A stretch of 64,000 bases of DNA from Escherichia coli (GCF_003018255.1 NZ_CP027440.1), one strand, 5' to 3'; shown: positions 22,215 through 39,745, counted from the stretch's first letter. Made by a program: numbers and translations. The notes: generated from the letters alone by a model not told the origin.

Positions 22215-23762
22215 ATGGAATATTCTATGTCGGATATTGTCGCCGGGAACAGGATTGCTGCTCAATATTTAAGAATGTCTACCGAGCATCAGAAATATTC
22301 GCCGGAGAACCAGCGGGAATATATCGAGAAGTATGCAAAAGAACACTGTATTACCATTAAATATACCTATGACGACGCTGGCCGAAGTGGGCTGAGCCTG
22401 GATAACAGGCCTGGCCTGCGTTCGCTGTTATATGATGTTGAAAACGGAATAATAAAAGTCTCGTTAATTCTTGTTTACGATGTCAGTCGGTTTGGTCGTT
22501 TTCAGGATATTGAAGAGGCTGCTCATTACTCGTGGCTACTGAAGCGTAATGGTGTGCGCATTATTTATTGCGCGGAGCCTTTCTCGGAAGAACAGACCGA
22601 ATTGTTTATGCTGGGATTATCTTACTCCCGCTATGGCGCCGCAACTTACAGTAAAAACCTTTCACAAAAAGTTTTTCTTGGCCAGGCAAACCTCGTTCGG
22701 CGGGGTTATTATCAAGGTGGTATGCCTGGCTATGGCATTCGGAGATTATTAATTGATGAACATACTAATCCGAAAGGCATGCTTCTGCCGGGGCAAAGGA
22801 AAAGCCTGCAAACTGACAGAGTAATATTGATCCCGGGGCCCGCGGAAGAGGTGGTAATAGTCAATAAAATCTATGACATGTTTATTGATGAGGGCAAGCC
22901 TGAGTTTGTTATTGCTTCAGAACTGAACCGGAAGAACATCCCCGCCGAGAATGGGCTCCAGTGGAGCCGATGTAAAATTCATCAGATACTGACCAATGAA
23001 AAATATATTGGCAATAATGTTTATAACAGAACCTCCGGACGATTGAAGACCCGAAGTGTCAGGAATCCTCAGGATCAGTGGATCAGATGTGACGGCGCGT
23101 GGGACCCTGTGGTATCAGTAGAGAAATTTGAGGCGGCTAAAAGGATTATTGAAGCCAGGGCCGTTCAGTACAGTGATGATGAACTGCTGGATAAACTACG
23201 CCATCTGCTGAAGCTTCGTGGCAGATTATCCGGGATTGTGATTGATGAAGAGGAACTGTTTCCATCGAGCAGCATTTTTCGTTCACGGTTTGGTGGGTTA
23301 GTCAGGGCTTACACCCTTATTGGTTATCACCCGCGCCATGATTACTCTTATCTTGAAATAAAAAAGCAGATTGCAGAATGCCATCTCACTTTCATGGATA
23401 ATTTGGTGCAGGATATATACCGATATGGCGGTTGGGCAGAGATGCATCAGGATGGTTCATTATATATTAATGATGAGTTTTTTGTTTCCGCTAATCTGGT
23501 TCGCTGCCAACGTTTGTCGTCAGGTAAGCTTCGTTGGAAGATAAAATTTAATGTATCCCATTATTGTGATGTCATGATCTTTCCACGGTTGGATAGCACA
23601 AATAACTCCGTGGTTGATTACTTTATGTTTCCGGCTATTGATGTGTTGTATAACGATTTAACGCTTCATGAGAACAATGGTTTTATCCTCGAACTATATC
23701 GATTTGATGATTTGTCATGTCTGGAAAATCTTGTAAAACGAACTGGTCTGGAGAGTAAATAA
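22215..23762 (+). CDS. Large serine recombinase (resolvase/invertase catalytic domain plus recombinase domain)
   Basis: N-terminal AAQYLRMSTEHQ...YDDAGRSGLSLDNRPGLRSLL...YDVSRFGR matches the serine-recombinase catalytic domain; 515 aa; starts 11 bp after the fimbrial operon. Confidence 0.8.
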   Translation: MEYSMSDIVAGNRIAAQYLRMSTEHQKYSPENQREYIEKYAKEHCITIKYTYDDAGRSGLSLDNRPGLRSLLYDVENGIIKVSLILVYDVSRFGRFQDIEEAAHYSWLLKRNGVRIIYCAEPFSEEQTELFMLGLSYSRYGAATYSKNLSQKVFLGQANLVRRGYYQGGMPGYGIRRLLIDEHTNPKGMLLPGQRKSLQTDRVILIPGPAEEVVIVNKIYDMFIDEGKPEFVIASELNRKNIPAENGLQWSRCKIHQILTNEKYIGNNVYNRTSGRLKTRSVRNPQDQWIRCDGAWDPVVSVEKFEAAKRIIEARAVQYSDDELLDKLRHLLKLRGRLSGIVIDEEELFPSSSIFRSRFGGLVRAYTLIGYHPRHDYSYLEIKKQIAECHLTFMDNLVQDIYRYGGWAEMHQDGSLYINDEFFVSANLVRCQRLSSGKLRWKIKFNVSHYCDVMIFPRLDSTNNSVVDYFMFPAIDVLYNDLTLHENNGFILELYRFDDLSCLENLVKRTGLESK

Positions 23763-24649
23763 TGAAATCTTTTGATGAACAGATAGAACTTGTCGATATC
23801 AGTGATATTTATATCGCAAATCCACGGAAAAGGAATAAATTCATTCATAATGAAATAAAAGAGAACATAAAAACCATTGGTCTGAAACGGCCTGTTAGCG
23901 TGCGCCCAGTGAATAATGAAAACTATAAATATGCCCTGATTTGTGGTCAGGGACGACTTGAAGCGTATATTGAGTATGGTGAAACGAAAATTCCTGCAAT
24001 CATCAAGCAGGTTGATGAAGAGACAGCGCACCTGATGAGCCTGGCTGAAAACATCGCAAGACGTAATCCCCGGGCGGCAGAGCTAATGGAAGATATCAGA
24101 AGAATGAAGACCAGTGGCCTGACCGATCGTGAAATAGGCTTGCGGCTTGGGTATAATTCGAGTTGGGTAAATGGGGTGATCACTCTGTTGTCATCCGGAG
24201 AGAAGCATCTTTTGCGGGCATTTGAGACTGGCGATATTCCCTTGTATCTTGCTGTGGAAATATCCCGGTCAGGAGATGAGGAAACTCAGGAACTGCTGAC
24301 GGTCGCCCTGAAAGAAGGACATATCAAGGGTGGGCAAATTAATAAGATCAGGCGCATACTTGAACAACGTAAGAAAGGCGATAAAGGTACGATTAGTACG
24401 GCTTTTTTTCCTGGGAAAAAACAGAAAAAACTGACCCCGGAAGAACTGGCTAATGTCTACCAGGAAAACATTAATGAGCAAAAAGCCATTCTGCTGAAAT
24501 CCACAATGGTTAAAGAGAAAATTCTGGCAGTAAAGCAAATATTTGGTTATTTACTTAAAGATAATGATTTTGTTACATTGCTGCACAGTAATAATATCCA
24601 CGATATTCCTTCTTTACTGGATGGCAGTGATGTATCGGGGGAGAAATAA
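23762..24649 (+). CDS. ParB/Srx-fold (ParB N-terminal-domain-like) protein 1
   Basis: Motifs ELVDISDIYIANPRKRN, GLKRPVSVRP, ICGQGRLEA (arginine-finger-like) and an HTH-like GLTDREIGLRLG; TAATG overlap with the recombinase stop. Confidence 0.65.
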   Translation: MKSFDEQIELVDISDIYIANPRKRNKFIHNEIKENIKTIGLKRPVSVRPVNNENYKYALICGQGRLEAYIEYGETKIPAIIKQVDEETAHLMSLAENIARRNPRAAELMEDIRRMKTSGLTDREIGLRLGYNSSWVNGVITLLSSGEKHLLRAFETGDIPLYLAVEISRSGDEETQELLTVALKEGHIKGGQINKIRRILEQRKKGDKGTISTAFFPGKKQKKLTPEELANVYQENINEQKAILLKSTMVKEKILAVKQIFGYLLKDNDFVTLLHSNNIHDIPSLLDGSDVSGEK

Positions 24650-24650
24650 G

Positions 24651-25541
24651 ATGATTTCACAATGTTTTGACTCCCGATTTTATACCTTTAAGGTGGAATC
24701 ACTGGTGTATGCCAGAACGCTGCCGGTTAATGTTAAATTCAGTACGAAGTACAAACAAATTAAAGCCTCTGTCGATGAAATTGGGTTAATTGAACCCATT
24801 GTGGTTTATATCAATGACGCCAATGATAAAGTCATTCTGGATGGACATCTTCGCGTTGAAGTTTTGAAAGAACTCGGAATAACTACTGCTCATTGTCTGA
24901 TATCCCCTGTGGAGGATACATATTCATATAACAAACGTGTTAGTCGCCTTACCATTGTGCAGGCCCAAAACATGCTGCTTAAAGCGGTTGAATCTGGCGT
25001 TTCAGTTGAAAAACTATGCGCCGTACTGGGTGTCACGCCAGATACGCTGATTGGTAAACTGAAAATTTCTGATGGCATTGCCCCTGAAGTCATGGCGTTA
25101 CTGGCAGAAAAAAATGTACCGCAGACCATTTTCTCTGTGTTGAAAAAACTAAAGTTCTATAAGCAGATAGAAATGGTTAACACCATGATCAGTATTAATA
25201 ATTTCACCCGCAAATTTGCGATGTCGATGCTGCATGCCGTTGCCCCTGAACATCTTGTAGCGCCTAAAAAAGATGCCAGCAGAGAAACAGATATCAGAAA
25301 AAATCTCGAAAGACTGGAAAAAGAAATGGCTTCCGTTCAGGTGGAAACGCAGCATCTTCAGGATGAATATGCTGAGAATAACCTTCGGCTGGTTATCATT
25401 AAAAATCACATTGAACGTCTGCTGGCGAACGGTCAGGTACTTAACTGGCTTTATGATAACCATCAGGAGTACCTTTCTGTGCTCAAGCAAATCTCGGGGC
25501 TGGATGATTTGAATAAGCTTGGCCAGACAATTGAGGAATGA
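24651..25541 (+). CDS. ParB/Srx-fold protein 2
   Basis: IEPIVVYINDANDKVILDGHLRVEVLKELG is ParB-box-like; start 2 bp after the previous stop. Confidence 0.6.
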   Translation: MISQCFDSRFYTFKVESLVYARTLPVNVKFSTKYKQIKASVDEIGLIEPIVVYINDANDKVILDGHLRVEVLKELGITTAHCLISPVEDTYSYNKRVSRLTIVQAQNMLLKAVESGVSVEKLCAVLGVTPDTLIGKLKISDGIAPEVMALLAEKNVPQTIFSVLKKLKFYKQIEMVNTMISINNFTRKFAMSMLHAVAPEHLVAPKKDASRETDIRKNLERLEKEMASVQVETQHLQDEYAENNLRLVIIKNHIERLLANGQVLNWLYDNHQEYLSVLKQISGLDDLNKLGQTIEE

Positions 25542-25740
25542 CACATTTTTAAAGCAAGGACTGCTGTTTTACAGATTGCCACTATGATGGGATGCACTGA
25601 GAGAGGAGGGCGTGCTGGTGGTTGACGTGATTCAACTGGTGCGGAAAATCTTGCTCAAAGGACGATGGCTTAAAATCAAGTTGCTGTTTCAAAAATGAAA
25701 AAGTAGATTTACATCCACTTTTCTTACTGAGGTAAAAATA

Positions 25741-26199
25741 GTGCATATAGATGCGGATTTCATAAGCTTGAGCACATTGGTGGCTAATCAACAAGCTGCA
25801 AAATGGGCGGGGGTTGCTGCTATTGCTGCCTGTTTGACGTTTGTTGTGACAACGATAGGTTTACTACTTGCTTGGCGGTCGTTGCATCAGTGGAAGCCTC
25901 AATACAAAGAAAACTCTAGACTTCTCCTAATCGAAGCTTTAATCGCATTTCAGAAATGTTTAATAACTATACCAAAAAATCTCGATAACGATCCCACCTA
26001 TCAAAGCCGAAAGGAATTTTTGAAGGCAAGTACTGAAGTTGAGCTAAGAGGACAAATATATCTTAAGCAACACAGCAACGAAAAATTAAAAGATGAATTA
26101 GCAAATCTCAGGAGTAAATGTGCAGAATTTGTTGGTGGTAAGGTGACTAAACCTGAACTGTCATTCATCTCAGCAATAATATTACTCATTGAAGTATAA
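25741..26199 (+). CDS. Hypothetical membrane-anchored protein (GTG start)
   Basis: One transmembrane segment AAIAACLTFVVTTIGLLLAW; AT-rich; possibly a fourth gene of the recombinase module. Confidence 0.35.
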   Translation: MHIDADFISLSTLVANQQAAKWAGVAAIAACLTFVVTTIGLLLAWRSLHQWKPQYKENSRLLLIEALIAFQKCLITIPKNLDNDPTYQSRKEFLKASTEVELRGQIYLKQHSNEKLKDELANLRSKCAEFVGGKVTKPELSFISAIILLIEV

Positions 26200-29359: not shown

Positions 29360-29410
29360 TGACTATGAGTCACGAATGTATGCTAGCACGCTTTTTATGT
29401 GACTCATAGT
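29360..29410 (+). promoter_or_regulatory. Inverted pair of 13-bp sites GACTATGAGTCAC (29360-29372) and GTGACTCATAGTC (29398-29410) in a divergent promoter region
   Basis: Seen directly between the Nlp-like gene and the first Xre gene. Confidence 0.5.
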
Positions 29411-29448
29411 CCGTGGACTGATAATCAACGAAGATTGATGCTGGCTAG

Positions 29449-29712
29449 ATGGAAAAGACGGGATCAATCAAAAAGGTACTGGGTAAAAGAATCAGGGCTC
29501 TACGCCGTGAGATGGACCTATCCCAGGAAGCTTTAGCCGACAAATGCGGTATCGATCGCACCTATATGAGTGGAATTGAGCGAGGAGTAAGGAACCCCAC
29601 GCTTGTTGTCATTTGTGCAATCTCGGACGGTCTGGGGATGGATCTTAGCCATTTATTTATGTTTGACGATGGCGCAGAAAAGGACGCCGAATCAACGAAG
29701 TGTGACTCATAG
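29449..29712 (+). CDS. Xre-family HTH regulator (paralog A)
   Basis: LSQEALADKCGIDRTYMSGIERGVRNPTL helix-turn-helix. Confidence 0.7.
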   Translation: MEKTGSIKKVLGKRIRALRREMDLSQEALADKCGIDRTYMSGIERGVRNPTLVVICAISDGLGMDLSHLFMFDDGAEKDAESTKCDS

Positions 29713-29714
29713 TC
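29702..29714 (+). promoter_or_regulatory. Third copy of operator-like site GTGACTCATAGTC, overlapping the stop of Xre paralog A
   Basis: gtgactcatagtccgtgg(a/t)ctgata is repeated at 29398 and 29702. Confidence 0.5.
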
Positions 29715-29751
29715 CGTGGTCTGATAGACAACGTAAGTTCATTTTATCTGG

Positions 29752-29976
29752 ATGAAAAATACATCCAGTATTCAGGCGCAGTTTGGCGCACATCTCAAAA
29801 AACTCAGACTCCAGTCGGGCCTGTCTCAGGAAGCATTCGCGGATAAGTGTGGTCTCGATCGTACTTATGTGAGCGGTATTGAGCGGGGAGTAAGGAATCC
29901 AACCCTTGAGGTGATAAGTGTTTTAGGAAAAGGGTTGGACATGGACATCAAAGAATTATTCAACTTTGAAAGATAG
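29752..29976 (+). CDS. Xre-family HTH regulator (paralog B)
   Basis: LSQEAFADKCGLDRTYVSGIERGVRNPTL; tandem paralog of the previous gene. Confidence 0.7.
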   Translation: MKNTSSIQAQFGAHLKKLRLQSGLSQEAFADKCGLDRTYVSGIERGVRNPTLEVISVLGKGLDMDIKELFNFER

Positions 29977-29978
29977 GT

Positions 29979-30899
29979 TTATCTATTAGTAGCAACTCTA
30001 TCCGCAGCAGTACGGGTAACTTGATTTCCAACATCCCAGCCGTTTTCATCTGGGAGTGACATCCCATCCATTGGCATTAGGATAAAACCACCAATAGTTG
30101 GTCCAAATGACTCAGTAGTGTTAATTCCTGCATAGCTTGTTCTGATAATATTTTCATTCAAATTGGTCAAAAATGATATTCGAGTACCAAGTGGGTGCGC
30201 GGTTACCATTTGGATGTATCCACCAATAGTATTGACTGTTTCTTGGTTAATCCAATTATTCAAAGCAATAAACGGGGTACGCCACCAATTTATTGTGTTA
30301 GGAGTAAATTGTTGCCTGGTATTCTCTATAAACTCATTAAGTTCATGCAAGTTATCACCTAATAAAACAGGTCTGCCTGTTGATAAATTTTGAATATCTT
30401 CAATCTGGAGGTTGGCTGGGTGCTCAATAGAGTTATTGAGTTTTATAATTTTGTAGGTTTGTGTTCTCCAGCAAAAACCAAAAATTATCATCTGTATTCT
30501 TACTGCTTGGGGAAAGGATTGGCCGATATCAGACATATATTGCTCGGCAATATTTTTTGCTAATGAAGCTATTTCATTAAGACTTGGGAATGCTTCGGTC
30601 GATATTTGTTGTTCTGGATTATTGTTCGCAATCTCATGAAGTCTTGCTAATGATACTGCAAGCATTTCTTTGACATTAATTCCAATCATTGTACTTCCTG
30701 CAAATCCGAAGCCAAATTCGAATATTTTTTGCGGGTGAATTCGATAAACGTCCGAAGAGCGAATAACTGATACGGGGATTGAGAATAATTTCGGACAATG
30801 GTCAGTTAGTCTGCTATTTTGCTGAGTGATTCTTGAGTCGCTGACTGCCCAAATACTATCGCTTTCCTCTCTATTAAACCAACATGCAATTGCGGTCAT
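29979..30899 (-). CDS. Candidate N-terminal-nucleophile hydrolase with proteasome-beta/HslV-like N-terminal region and ~130-aa C-terminal extension
   Basis: From the internal start, M-TAIACWFNREESDSIWAVSDSRIT...FGFGFAGS echoes HslV TTIVSV...VIAGDGQAT...AGFAGG; AT-rich. Confidence 0.45.
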   Translation of the reverse strand: MTAIACWFNREESDSIWAVSDSRITQQNSRLTDHCPKLFSIPVSVIRSSDVYRIHPQKIFEFGFGFAGSTMIGINVKEMLAVSLARLHEIANNNPEQQISTEAFPSLNEIASLAKNIAEQYMSDIGQSFPQAVRIQMIIFGFCWRTQTYKIIKLNNSIEHPANLQIEDIQNLSTGRPVLLGDNLHELNEFIENTRQQFTPNTINWWRTPFIALNNWINQETVNTIGGYIQMVTAHPLGTRISFLTNLNENIIRTSYAGINTTESFGPTIGGFILMPMDGMSLPDENGWDVGNQVTRTAADRVATNR

Positions 30900-30947
30900 A
30901 AGGTTTTTCCAGTTATTTAACATTAATGCGAATAGCTTAGCATATTT

Positions 30948-33590
30948 TTATTGCGAGATTACCGAGCTTAGGGTTATCGCCGCCTCCACTTCACTACACC
31001 CTGTCTCCTTCATAATCCGCATCCTATCGGCCTTTTCATGTTTCTCTGTCATCGCCAGCGCCAGATAGAGCGCTGGCGGCACCACCCGAAACAGTGCCTC
31101 TATACGCGGTGAAAGCACCACGCCCTCGGTATACTGCCCCGGTGATTTTACCGCTGAGCGCAGCAGTTGGCTCTGTTCTTCCGTAAGCGCTTTAAACCGG
31201 CAGACCTGCTCGATCTCTTCCGGCGGCATCACCAGTAGTTCCCACCATTCGATCATATTGAGCAGCTTCTTCGCCTCATCAGGAAAATCCGCCAGGTTCT
31301 GGGTGGCGAGCCACAGCCAGATACCGAGCTTGCGCCACATCTTCGAGCCTTTGGTGAGAAAGCGCGCCAATAAGGGATTAACAGTGATGATATGCGCCTC
31401 ATCGGTGATATTGACGATAGGCCTCGCCAGATGCTGGGCGCGCTCGCCGAGGTTATTGATATGGTTAATCAGCGAGATATAGCTGATGGCAAGCTGCGCT
31501 TCATAGCCTTCGCGGGCAAAGGTGGCGAGATCCACTAGGGTGATATCCGCCTCCGGCCACATCTGGCCTTCACGGTTAAACAGTTCGCCTTCAAACCCGG
31601 CGCAGAACAGGTTGATGGATTCCGCCATTTCATACGCCCTCTGGCGGCGGGCTTCCGGCAGACTGTTGTCGCGGGAAAGGGCGAACAGTGCGTCACGGAT
31701 ATCCTGGGTCAGCGTCTGTCGTTTTTCCTCGTAGCAGGTGTGCGCGGCAGCGATAATCGCCTGGCGGATCATCGCCCGATCCGGCCGGGTGAGGCGCGCA
31801 TCCTCTTTCGCTTCACCACCGGTAATCATCAACCGGGCGGTGATCTCCATTTCACCCAGCACGTCGCGCTGGTCATCGCCGTCGCTCTCTTCGTCCTCTG
31901 GCGGTTCGGCGTCGGTAACTGCCTGTTCCACCAGTCGCCACGCATCGGCGAACAGGGGCAGGGTGACGCCAGAACCGGGGCGCAGGCTGATTTTATTCAC
32001 CGTCAGGCCGTGGGCGGCGGCGTAGTCGGCCATCAGGCCAAATGAGTTTCCGGCCTCGATGATAAACAGGCGCGGACGATGTAGCGCCATCAGTTGCGCG
32101 ATTTTCGCGTTGAGGGTGGCGGATTTGCCCGCTCCGGTTGGCCCAAGAAGTAAAAGGTGTCCGTTCTGGGCACGATCCAGCTTGTTCAGCGGATCGAAGC
32201 ACAGCGGCGTGCCGCCCCGGTTGAAGTAGCTGATCCCCGGATGCCCGGTGCCGGTTTCCCGTCCGTACAGCGGCAGCAGCCCGGCGATATGCTGCACAAA
32301 GTTGAGCCGGGTATACAGCCCGCGCGGGTCGCGCAGGGGATCGAAGCACATCGGCAGCCAGCGCAGCCAGTGGCTTAAGGGGGCGACTTCGTGCTGCTCC
32401 TGCACCGGAACCAGCCCGGCGTTGAGCAGCAGGCTCTGTAGCTGACGCTGCTGGCGGAACAGGATATCGGTGTCCGGCGCGCTGAGATAAAACGCCAGCG
32501 TGCTGCGGTAGAGTTTATGGCCGTCCTTCAGGAAGCTTCGCACCTCGCTGCAGTCGCGGCGGGTGTATTCCGAATCGGTATTGTCGCCAATCGCCCGGTC
32601 GGCCAGGCGGCTGATGTGTTGCTCCAGCTTGTCCTGCGGATACACCACCACGGTCAGGTTCATGATGGTTCCGCCAGGCAGCAGGTCGACCAGGGCGTTA
32701 ATGCCGTCTCCGCGCGCGGTTTCCCCGGTCAGCAGGCCGGGCGGCGGCGCTTTGCGCAGGCGGTCAACCACCACCACTTTATGCGGGCGGTTATCCAGCC
32801 ACCAGACGCCGTTTGCCGCATCCGAACGGGGTTCACTCGCCAGCAGGCGTTCGGCGAAATCGGCCAGGACCGGCAGCGGTTCAGTTTCCGGCAGGTCAAG
32901 CTGCTGCCAGAAGGCTTTTTTGTCCTCAGCAGGCGGCGCGGGATTAAACCAGCGCACCAGCCAGCGGTGAATGTCCTGCTCATTCTGGCGGATAGCGCTG
33001 ATACCCGCCGCTTTTAGCCCGGCGGTAAGGCGTTCGCAGATATTATTCAGCGTCTCTTCCGGCGACGGTTCATCCGGTGAAAGTCCAGGAAGCCATCGGT
33101 ACACCACCATCCGCGTGCGCCGCCACGTCGCCCGCCAGCGGGTACGGGTGACGGTGTTATCGAGAAACAGTCCCTCGTCGCGGGTGAGATTCACCATATG
33201 GTTTGCCATCTGTGTGAGCCACTCGCGGGTAAAGGCGGAGTCGCGGATTTCCGGTGCGGCGTAAGAGGCAAGTGATGCCAGCCACGCCTCGCTGTCGTCC
33301 TCATCCTGACAGAAAAACTGTACCACCCACGGTGCGCGCTCATGCTCATCAAACGCATCCTGTAAGGCATCGGTGACGGTATCGCGGACCTGTTCCAGAA
33401 ACGCCGTTGAGCGGCCTTCGGTGCCAACGGGATATAGCTCAAATACGGCACCTACCGAGCGGCCATCTTCCAGCAGCAGCGTCTGCGACTCCGGCAAAAA
33501 CTCCACCCACGGCAGCCAGTCGACAAATGACGGGCCCTTGCGGTAGCTGGTATTCAGCGCCTGTTCAGTCAGGCCGCGCCGTTCATTCAT
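30948..33590 (-). CDS. Conjugative-transfer ATPase (TraC/VirB4-like)
   Basis: 880 aa; Walker A LLLLGPTGAGKSATL. Confidence 0.85.
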   Translation of the reverse strand: MNERRGLTEQALNTSYRKGPSFVDWLPWVEFLPESQTLLLEDGRSVGAVFELYPVGTEGRSTAFLEQVRDTVTDALQDAFDEHERAPWVVQFFCQDEDDSEAWLASLASYAAPEIRDSAFTREWLTQMANHMVNLTRDEGLFLDNTVTRTRWRATWRRTRMVVYRWLPGLSPDEPSPEETLNNICERLTAGLKAAGISAIRQNEQDIHRWLVRWFNPAPPAEDKKAFWQQLDLPETEPLPVLADFAERLLASEPRSDAANGVWWLDNRPHKVVVVDRLRKAPPPGLLTGETARGDGINALVDLLPGGTIMNLTVVVYPQDKLEQHISRLADRAIGDNTDSEYTRRDCSEVRSFLKDGHKLYRSTLAFYLSAPDTDILFRQQRQLQSLLLNAGLVPVQEQHEVAPLSHWLRWLPMCFDPLRDPRGLYTRLNFVQHIAGLLPLYGRETGTGHPGISYFNRGGTPLCFDPLNKLDRAQNGHLLLLGPTGAGKSATLNAKIAQLMALHRPRLFIIEAGNSFGLMADYAAAHGLTVNKISLRPGSGVTLPLFADAWRLVEQAVTDAEPPEDEESDGDDQRDVLGEMEITARLMITGGEAKEDARLTRPDRAMIRQAIIAAAHTCYEEKRQTLTQDIRDALFALSRDNSLPEARRQRAYEMAESINLFCAGFEGELFNREGQMWPEADITLVDLATFAREGYEAQLAISYISLINHINNLGERAQHLARPIVNITDEAHIITVNPLLARFLTKGSKMWRKLGIWLWLATQNLADFPDEAKKLLNMIEWWELLVMPPEEIEQVCRFKALTEEQSQLLRSAVKSPGQYTEGVVLSPRIEALFRVVPPALYLALAMTEKHEKADRMRIMKETGCSEVEAAITLSSVISQ

Positions 33591-39225: not shown

Positions 39226-39510
39226 TCACCAATTTACAGGTAAGCGCCGATGGGTATGAAACACGCGTAAAACCTGAATTATATTATTTCGTACTCGATA
39301 GGGAATGATATAAGGGTAATTATGAAGAATGAGCTCACGTGTTTCAGGTACCCTTCCTTCCCGGCCCATAGCGGGTTGCTCTTTGAGCAGTTGCGTAAGT
39401 CGCCAGACTTCGTTCACAAACCGTTCCGCAGCCTGCGGATCGTCTTCAGCAATATACCGGAACTCAGCTTCGAGATTGGCAATGGCTTTACGTAGCCACT
39501 TAATTTCCAT
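39226..39510 (-). CDS. ParE/RelE-family type II toxin
   Basis: 94 aa; ...ILHNYPYIIPYRVRNNIIQVLRVFH. Confidence 0.75.
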   Translation of the reverse strand: MEIKWLRKAIANLEAEFRYIAEDDPQAAERFVNEVWRLTQLLKEQPAMGREGRVPETRELILHNYPYIIPYRVRNNIIQVLRVFHTHRRLPVNW

Positions 39511-39745
39511 CTGGCTTTACTCCCAGACGTTGAAACAGCTTATCCACCTCATCTGAAGTGGCAAAATCACCGGCATCAGCTTCCTGAATGGCCTGCTCAA
39601 TCTCTGCAACTTGCCAGGCCTCCCGGGCAACATAATCTTCAATTGCCTGATTTGCCAGCCAGGACTTTGAGCGTCCGGTCGCTTTTGATAATGCTTCCAG
39701 TTGCGTGGAAAGATTGTTGTTTAAACGGACTGACATTACGCCCAT
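39500..39745 (-). CDS. Ribbon-helix-helix antitoxin (ParD/CopG-like)
   Basis: Start MGVMSVRLN with GAGG ribosome-binding site; overlaps the toxin start. Confidence 0.65.
   Translation of the reverse strand: MGVMSVRLNNNLSTQLEALSKATGRSKSWLANQAIEDYVAREAWQVAEIEQAIQEADAGDFATSDEVDKLFQRLGVKPDGN

Follow-up and report, generated by a model that had tools for sequence, protein, structure and literature searches.

This work deals with one gene in a 64,000-nucleotide stretch of Escherichia coli DNA (GCF_003018255.1 NZ_CP027440.1), called the window below, where it occupies positions 29979..30899 on the minus strand, within an integrative and conjugative element (ICE). Judging from its conserved residues and predicted structure, the 306-aa product is a stand-alone member of the proteasome-beta/HslV superfamily (MEROPS T1-type) that carries the complete catalytic apparatus, namely the Thr/Asp/Lys/Gly set, and we infer that it may be an active peptidase with an N-terminal threonine nucleophile (Thr1). 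The explanation that we favor, and to which we give slightly better than an even chance, is that of a stand-alone Thr1 peptidase, carried as mobile cargo, with a role in phage or mobile-element conflict. Such conflict is put forward as the most likely role because the gene repeatedly lands among anti-phage systems, very often beside CBASS, a signaling system against phages that is based on cyclic oligonucleotides.

Catalytic residues and predicted fold

The internal Met at 30899, ninth codon of a minus-strand open reading frame (ORF) of 314 aa (29979..30923), is the true start of the gene, since homologs nearly all begin there, Thr stands next in 143 of the 146 representatives with a residue in that column (Ser in the remaining 3), and the RefSeq entry, labelled 'hypothetical protein', is the 306-aa form. 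A start at this Met with Thr next, as proposed in a preliminary description of the window, is thereby borne out. Read from Met 30899, the protein is MTAIACWFNREE...WAVSDSRIT...FGFGFAGS or, in another excerpt, MTAIACWFNREESDSIWAVSDSRIT...PKLF...FGFGFAGS, so that the segments WAVSDSRIT and FGFGFAGS are present exactly as previously described. A weak GGAA Shine-Dalgarno sequence lies 6-9 nt 5' of this ATG, whereas the upstream ATG at 30923 has none, and the 27 homolog clusters retrieved by a word-indexed search are mostly of 287-306 aa, with the N-terminus MT(A/S)(I/V). The features of the gene and its product are the following, with conservation counted among 152 representatives whose pairwise identities are below 50% (a second alignment, A2, agrees).

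29979..30899, minus strand: coding sequence of the proteasome-like protein, 306 aa (stop codon 29979-29981; WP_050559183.1; UniProt A0A1Q4PBM4)
30894..30899, minus strand: start codon ATG (30897-30899) and ACC (30894-30896) for Thr2, equivalent of proteasome Thr1 and predicted nucleophile after loss of Met; no propeptide
30165..30899, minus strand: residues 1-245, predicted proteasome-type N-terminal nucleophile (Ntn) core (strands S1-S10, helices H1-H4), with an H1-H2 loop of ~20 residues and an H3-H4 insertion
30696..30839, minus strand: segment with the other catalytic-core residues, Asp21, Lys37 and Gly68
30837-30839, minus strand: Asp21 (in WAVSDSR), 150/150, equivalent of proteasome Asp17
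30789-30791, minus strand: Lys37 (in PKLF), 152/152, equivalent of proteasome Lys33
30696-30698, minus strand: Gly68 (in GFGFAGS), 151/152, equivalent of proteasome Gly47
29982..30164, minus strand: residues 246-306, family-specific C-terminal extension (block-mean pLDDT, the predicted local distance difference test, 41-82)
Other glycines, counts among the 152 representatives: Gly141, 151; Gly181, 152; Gly226 and Gly227, 151 and 148

The motif resemblance to the proteasome is no coincidence, because the residues flagged from the single sequence are the most conserved of a family of 626 cluster representatives. The HslV/proteasome-beta catalytic signatures that had been read into the protein are thus matched by near-invariant Thr and Lys in homolog alignments. 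In an AlphaFold2 model built on a 19-sequence alignment (mean pLDDT 80.4, predicted template modeling score 0.82), Thr2 opens strand 1, Asp21 ends strand 2, Lys37 directly precedes strand 3 and Gly68 ends strand 4, before helix 1. We take these positions to be those of Thr1, Asp17, Lys33 and Gly47 in the 20S structure, and the Asp-Lys spacing of 16 residues is identical. An hhalign alignment of the family to E. coli HslV, whose sequence was checked against PDB 1E94, is not significant (E 0.16) and places M-T on M-T1, VSD on AGD17, K37 on K33 and GFAGS on GFAGG.

The predicted fold leads to the same superfamily. The model shows the order of four strands, two helices, four strands, two helices and two strands, followed by a less confident tail, which corresponds to the four-layer alpha-beta-beta-alpha Ntn fold with proteasome topology. 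Foldseek, as an independent method, was used for a comparison with the PDB and returned proteasome subunits or Anbu as all of its top 50 matches (probability 1.00, E about 4e-7, target template modeling scores 0.65-0.71), so that the suspected resemblance to Ntn hydrolases holds for the modeled fold. Residues 246-306 fall outside the alignments to proteasomes, and G258 and G270 are conserved there.

One relative, on a Vibrio nigripulchritudo plasmid (WP_139126532.1; locus L038, 5971-6120), is annotated in RefSeq from an internal Met (MIWAVSDSR...), so that the catalytic Thr is lost. TSIICWRNQ, the conserved N-terminal stretch, stands in frame just upstream, and the codon before it is one for Ile instead of ATG, GTG or TTG, so that this start is either non-canonical or mis-called.

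Mobile cargo among defense systems

The gene had been considered a singleton, which proved wrong. A profile search of 1.84 billion cluster representatives yielded 626 relatives at E <= 1e-3, and 322 at E <= 1e-10; with few exceptions, they are 260-300 aa long and align from their own first residue. Among 5426 complete E. coli genomes, 43 have the exact locus on the chromosome, and the exact protein is on 705 contigs of a protein collection. According to AlphaFold-database matches and cluster names, members occur in gamma-, beta- and alpha-proteobacteria, cyanobacteria, Bacteroidota and Negativicutes, and they are always named 'uncharacterized' or 'hypothetical' in those sources. The ratio of nonsynonymous to synonymous substitution rates was 0.086-0.183 against orthologs 67-78% identical, and this is a real gene under purifying selection. 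Pattern scans, whose search patterns were narrow, gave 6 loci in about 100,000 species-representative genomes and 3 loci in viral contigs. Long variants of 387-458 aa were searched for a fused extra domain, and no recognizable one was found.

Within E. coli, at least three diverged clades of the family were seen, 39-59% identical to the window protein and each on a different element. The first is that of the ICE in the window. Another lies at a prophage end, in the order integrase, 200-aa ORF, family gene, Pin-like invertase and tail fiber, and another in a serine-recombinase island together with a CBASS and a KAP NTPase (PDC-S20); these non-ICE clades are loci L026-L029 and L030-L033.

Genomic contexts were collected from exact-sequence look-ups, from scans of viral, species-genome and metagenome contigs, and from plasmid records. 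They amounted to 64 loci with a family member, which, grouped by identity of the family gene, gave 26 context groups and one more from Anabaena, thus 27. An all-against-all comparison of neighbors found no neighbor family common to more than two of these groups, and the family gene is therefore a stand-alone single-gene unit with no obligate partner. Neither HslU nor another AAA+ unfoldase was found next to the gene among Pfam-annotated neighbors in any context or in the annotation of the window, as had been stated for HslU. The carriers are varied: the ICE, conjugative plasmids, an island bounded by a large serine recombinase, P2/186-like prophages, in one of which the gene follows the integrase at 22 bp, while in another it is flanked by two Ogr genes, and a tailed prophage, where it lies at the end running from integrase to invertase and tail fiber. 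The gene is accessory, horizontally moving cargo of ICEs, prophages and conjugative plasmids.

Enough flanking sequence to judge neighbors was available for 19 context groups. In raw counts, taken without a matched background, known or candidate defense systems are the immediate neighbors in 12 of them. They include, in Cupriavidus, the Borvo protein BovA (E 2e-225), with PIN/MazE, WYL and SIR2 genes nearby; PDC-M27 and a UG17 defense-associated reverse transcriptase (DRT) on a Vibrio plasmid; a reverse transcriptase and AbiEi on an Acinetobacter plasmid; a type II restriction endonuclease-like gene; and the families PDC-S20, PDC-S31, PDC-S52 and PDC-S59. This neighborhood suggests a role in bacterial immunity. 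The earlier guess of a defense component gains circumstantial support from these homologs and keeps its conditional form.

CBASS stands out among these neighbors. In 8 of the 19 groups, a CBASS cyclase and effector are encoded no farther than about 2.5 kb from the family gene, namely in those of Photobacterium, Pantoea, Pseudomonas cedrina with a metagenome contig, the E. coli island, the Vibrio plasmid, L060, L055 and L049-L054. On the Vibrio plasmid (L038), CBASS is 61 bp from the family gene, on the same strand. In L055, two different CBASS systems enclose the family gene, which follows a four-transmembrane (4TM) effector at a distance of 121 bp. In L049-L054, a canonical cyclase-phospholipase CBASS is accompanied by capH-capP, encoded on the other strand; the family gene comes downstream of capP after 188 bp, on the same strand as capP. 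Identities among the eight adjacent cyclases are mostly below 25%, against 33-50% among the linked family genes; the adjacency was therefore put together repeatedly and did not descend as one block.

Some details of these loci may be added. The arrangement in L055 (690-6558, metagenome contig Ga0105349_10001784) runs on one strand from cyclase PDLC00776 through the 4TM effector, the family gene, ORFs of 129 and 290 aa and a two-transmembrane effector to cyclase PDLC00807. That of L049 (1360-6882) is also seen in L051-L054, with a 447-aa ORF between capP and the family gene in L053. A 63-aa ORF in the capH-capP operon of L049, which the family gene would overlap, is probably spurious, and the actual distance from capP is 188 bp. 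CapH and CapP form a pair that regulates CBASS and other immune operons in response to DNA damage, and the paper describing them mentions no gene of this kind (Lau et al., bioRxiv 10.1101/2022.04.27.489752).

Such frequent adjacency raises the question of an accessory or regulatory protease linked to CBASS, which would process, activate or restrain the cyclase, the membrane effector or a shared phage cue, and which could also travel alone and act in trans. The eight groups, the short same-strand gaps and the very different clades of the cyclases, which imply repeated assembly, speak for it. We nevertheless regard it as unlikely: order and orientation vary relative to the family gene, other genes are often interposed, most contexts, that of the ICE in the window included, have no CBASS nearby, the CBASS systems concerned are minimal but complete, of type I, and are not known to require a protease, the same pattern could arise from shared insertion hotspots, and our chance estimate of about 1e-3 is a rough calculation only. 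Because of the varying order and orientation, and of the many contexts without CBASS, a functional link to CBASS is kept as a rival or a sub-hypothesis beside the favored explanation, that of a mobile Thr1 peptidase involved in conflict with phages or mobile elements. In a more specific and tentative form, which we would put clearly below an even chance, the protein would be the first proteasome homolog of bacteria to serve in immunity, a single-gene, Thr1-dependent anti-phage effector or sensor that in many lineages cooperates, or is co-regulated, with minimal CBASS, e.g., through DNA-damage control by CapH/CapP.

Several observations weigh against the favored explanation. As regards homology, neither the protein nor any one of 118 members gave a Pfam match, PF00227 included; the family hidden Markov model, a profile of 118 sequences, gave no significant match among all PDB sequences, with proteasome beta-9 (PSMB9) at E about 2; and hhalign reached only E 0.16 against the single HslV sequence. 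Of the auxiliary residues Ser129, Asp166 and Ser169, the two serines are apparently not conserved, since in a manual alignment to a proteasome sequence the family reads LGD and IGG, against GSG and SGG in the proteasome; in that same register, the glycines of both auxiliary loops are invariant (G181, G226 and G227) and the serines appear replaced. As regards defense, the family is not in PADLOC (v2), the protein is not in the DefensePredictor paper or its supplements, no defense system abuts the gene in the window, and no CBASS gene is present in the 64 kb. Recognizable defense neighbors were likewise not seen in Psychrobacter L021, in L058, in L035 or in Anabaena L064, the 'PDC' families of PADLOC are candidates and not validated systems, and the sample of contexts is small, with no matched background control.

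Other searches were of little help. A search of PDB sequences with the single sequence gave nothing useful, NCBIfam only a weak match to an unnamed 'hypothetical protein' model (E 1.2e-3), and PHROGs only marginal matches to families without an assigned function; a literature search by the accessions of the protein found no mention of it in the papers covered. As sequence methods give no significant match, the homology rests on the fold and the catalytic residues.

From a mechanistic point of view, translation would begin at Met-Thr, and methionine aminopeptidase, whose specificity allows Met to be removed before Thr, would expose Thr1. The amino group and hydroxyl of Thr1, with Lys37, Asp21 and the oxyanion hole at Gly68, would then cleave peptide bonds. 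Because there is neither a propeptide nor an unfoldase, activity would be governed by assembly, substrate specificity or expression. On infection, the protease might destroy phage or host proteins, possibly together with neighboring immune systems.

The integrative element and its controller genes

The element in the window is an ICE of the mating-pair-formation type MPF-G, with the families TraC_F_IV, RAQPRD and TIGR0374x/5x. The surroundings of the proteasome-like gene are as follows.

29361..30947: low-GC cargo block at the end of the mating-pair-formation operon of the ICE (GC 0.36-0.46, against 0.55-0.65 in the flanks)
29449..29712 and 29752..29976, plus strand: two helix-turn-helix (HTH) genes, neighbors of the proteasome-like gene
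30948..33590, minus strand: TraC-type ATPase, 880 aa, neighbor of the proteasome-like gene
29397-29431 and 29700-29734: operators of the two controller genes (the HTH genes), each 27/35 identical to the 35-bp C.Esp1396I operator

The placement first proposed, between regulator genes and the ATPase of the type IV secretion system, is accurate, and so is the atypically low GC content, since the gene has a GC of 0.380 and a third-codon-position GC (GC3) of 0.310, against 0.605 and 0.720 in the adjacent conjugative transfer ATPase gene (traC). The cargo block consists of the proteasome-like gene, the duplicated controller-protein genes and their operators. A Citrobacter ICE carries the same block in the same slot, and the proteasome-like protein encoded there is 78% identical.

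Between the stop of the traC-type ATPase and the start of the proteasome-like gene there are 48 bp (30900-30947), with both genes on the same strand and no promoter-like site found on that strand in the gap; the gene is, for these reasons, probably co-transcribed with the mating-pair-formation operon. This arrangement, together with the carriage by ICEs, prophages and conjugative plasmids, would fit an anti-defense or element-protective factor, that is, a protease by which the ICE or prophage degrades immune proteins of the recipient or competitors, to the benefit of the element and not of the host. We hold this to be quite improbable: in many genomes the gene lies inside host-type defense islands beside intact Borvo, CBASS or DRT, an unusual place for anti-defense genes, no homolog was found in the 50,697 sequenced phage genomes searched, and the gene is not in a recognizable leading region. 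The favored explanation remains a peptidase acting in phage or mobile-element conflict.

Both HTH genes match the PADLOC family Control_protein (E about 5e-20), and each operator, compared with the 35-bp operator of C.Esp1396I (PMC2504287), ends 17 nt before the start codon of its own gene. The 64-kb window contains three GACTnnnAGTC C-boxes, all within 29361-29976, and the controller gene and its operator form a 303-bp tandem duplication of ~77% identity. The two genes encode controller (C) proteins of restriction-modification type with Esp1396I-like operators, on an ICE, and they are called orphan because no restriction or methylase gene adjoins the pair. The stops of the second controller gene (plus strand) and of the proteasome-like gene (minus strand) are 2 bp apart (29974-29981), with no intergenic terminator, so that the convergent transcripts must overlap. 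Transcription activated by the controller protein would traverse the protease gene in antisense direction and could serve to time or to silence it. The HTH pair accompanies the proteasome-like gene only in the E. coli and Citrobacter ICE, and a conserved toxin-antitoxin-like module formed by the pair and the protease gene was rejected, the pair being specific to the ICE context.

Other cargo was observed on the same element from the annotation of an identical E. coli record: a second low-GC stretch (GC 0.37-0.42) with recombinase, ParB-like, RepB-C-terminal and hypothetical genes, and a RelE/ParE toxin with a CopG antitoxin. The toxin pair and the second cargo stretch correspond to about 39226-39745 and 22227-26199 in the window, approximate coordinates converted from locus L034. 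Finally, a 3.9-kb contig labelled 'MAG: Bacillota bacterium' (L020, JAEWTL010000048.1) contains copies of the gene and of both HTH genes that are 99% identical to the E. coli ICE, and its assignment to Bacillota is most likely a binning or contamination artifact.

Kinship with proteasome homologs

Compared with 20S proteasome beta subunits (MEROPS T1), the family has the same order of strands and helices, and the equivalents of Thr1, Asp17, Lys33 and Gly47 are conserved in it. By contrast, sequence identity is only about 12%, with no PF00227 match, and the family protein has neither a propeptide nor an alpha-subunit partner and is encoded as mobile cargo. It is also ~100 residues longer, with a long H1-H2 loop, the H3-H4 insertion and a C-terminal extension of ~60 residues.

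HslV (ClpQ) is close in another respect, as both proteins begin with Met-Thr, so that removal of Met alone would expose Thr1, and the solved E. coli HslV chains do start at Thr. The motif register M-T, xxD, K and GFAGx is the same, albeit in the non-significant profile alignment (E 0.16). The family protein, at 306 aa against 176 aa, is about 130 aa longer than HslV, as had been estimated, and unlike HslV it has no AAA+ gene nearby and is an accessory gene of patchy distribution, not a core gene. The shared fold and catalytic residues could nonetheless indicate general proteostasis, with HslV-like housekeeping in concert with a chromosomal unfoldase by a gene that merely hitch-hikes on mobile elements. 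This we consider very improbable indeed, given that no context offers an adjacent AAA+ partner, that the distribution is very patchy (the 6 loci of the narrow species-representative scan, the 43 E. coli genomes), and that the gene has an atypical GC content and always sits in accessory regions.

Anbu is accompanied by genes for ATP-grasp and transglutaminase-like proteins, and neighbors resembling these were seen in no context of the family; BPH, of about 185 aa, is compact in comparison with 306 aa. Anbu and BPH are likewise stand-alone bacterial Thr1 proteins of proteasome fold, having no propeptide or known unfoldase, and the abstracts compared contain no link of either to mobile elements or defense islands (PMC5666114, PMC5777263).

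A stand-alone proteasome homolog is not unprecedented, as might have been thought from the window alone. Fuchs, Alva and Lupas described in 2021 a set of 22 uncharacterized groups, including RPC, DPH, GPH, PMI-4 and PPH, which are of the same kind, i.e., propeptide-less, distant bacterial and phage homologs with conserved Thr1, Asp17, Lys33 and Gly47, insertions and C-terminal extensions (PMC8665760). The present family may be one of these 22 groups. DPH, GPH and PMI-4 are candidates, although the named groups, compared by description, fit only partly. RPC is described as having no helix H2, which is confident in the family model; RPC and DPH are described as confined to Proteobacteria, whereas the family also occurs in cyanobacteria, Bacteroidota and Negativicutes; and PMI-4 has multiple insertions and a broad distribution (PMC8665760). 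A look-up by accession of the representatives of these groups in the family clusters consulted returned none.

A last comparison is offered by connectase, which is likewise a partner-less Thr1 enzyme of proteasome fold, with a specific, non-degradative activity. The protein might accordingly not be a usual protease at all, and might act as a sequence-specific ligase or transpeptidase like the archaeal connectase, or as an amidase on a non-protein amide. The lack of a propeptide and of a partner, as in connectase, the near-invariant Cys143 and the family-specific C-terminal extension would be compatible with this, to which we give little credence: the family protein keeps helices H1 and H2, which connectase lacks, having instead a two-helix lid (PMC8665760). 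Connectase is moreover found only in archaeal methanogens and is a much weaker structural match to the family than 20S beta subunits. As regards Cys143 itself (30471-30473), it belongs to a G-x-C motif on a core strand and is retained in 148/152 representatives. No equivalent is known from proteasome beta subunits or from HslV.

Uncharacterized relatives of the proteasome are numerous in bacteria. The authors of the 2021 survey found no genomic context suggestive of function for their groups (PMC8665760). Against that reported lack of informative context, the family supplies one that points to function, and the defense-island and CBASS neighborhood appears to be what is new for a family of proteasome homologs. 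It is also readily testable, with one gene, from E. coli, and obvious point mutants. If it is a true immune protease, proteasome-type catalysis would be added to the chemistry of bacterial immunity, and orphan proteasome homologs would obtain their first physiological role.

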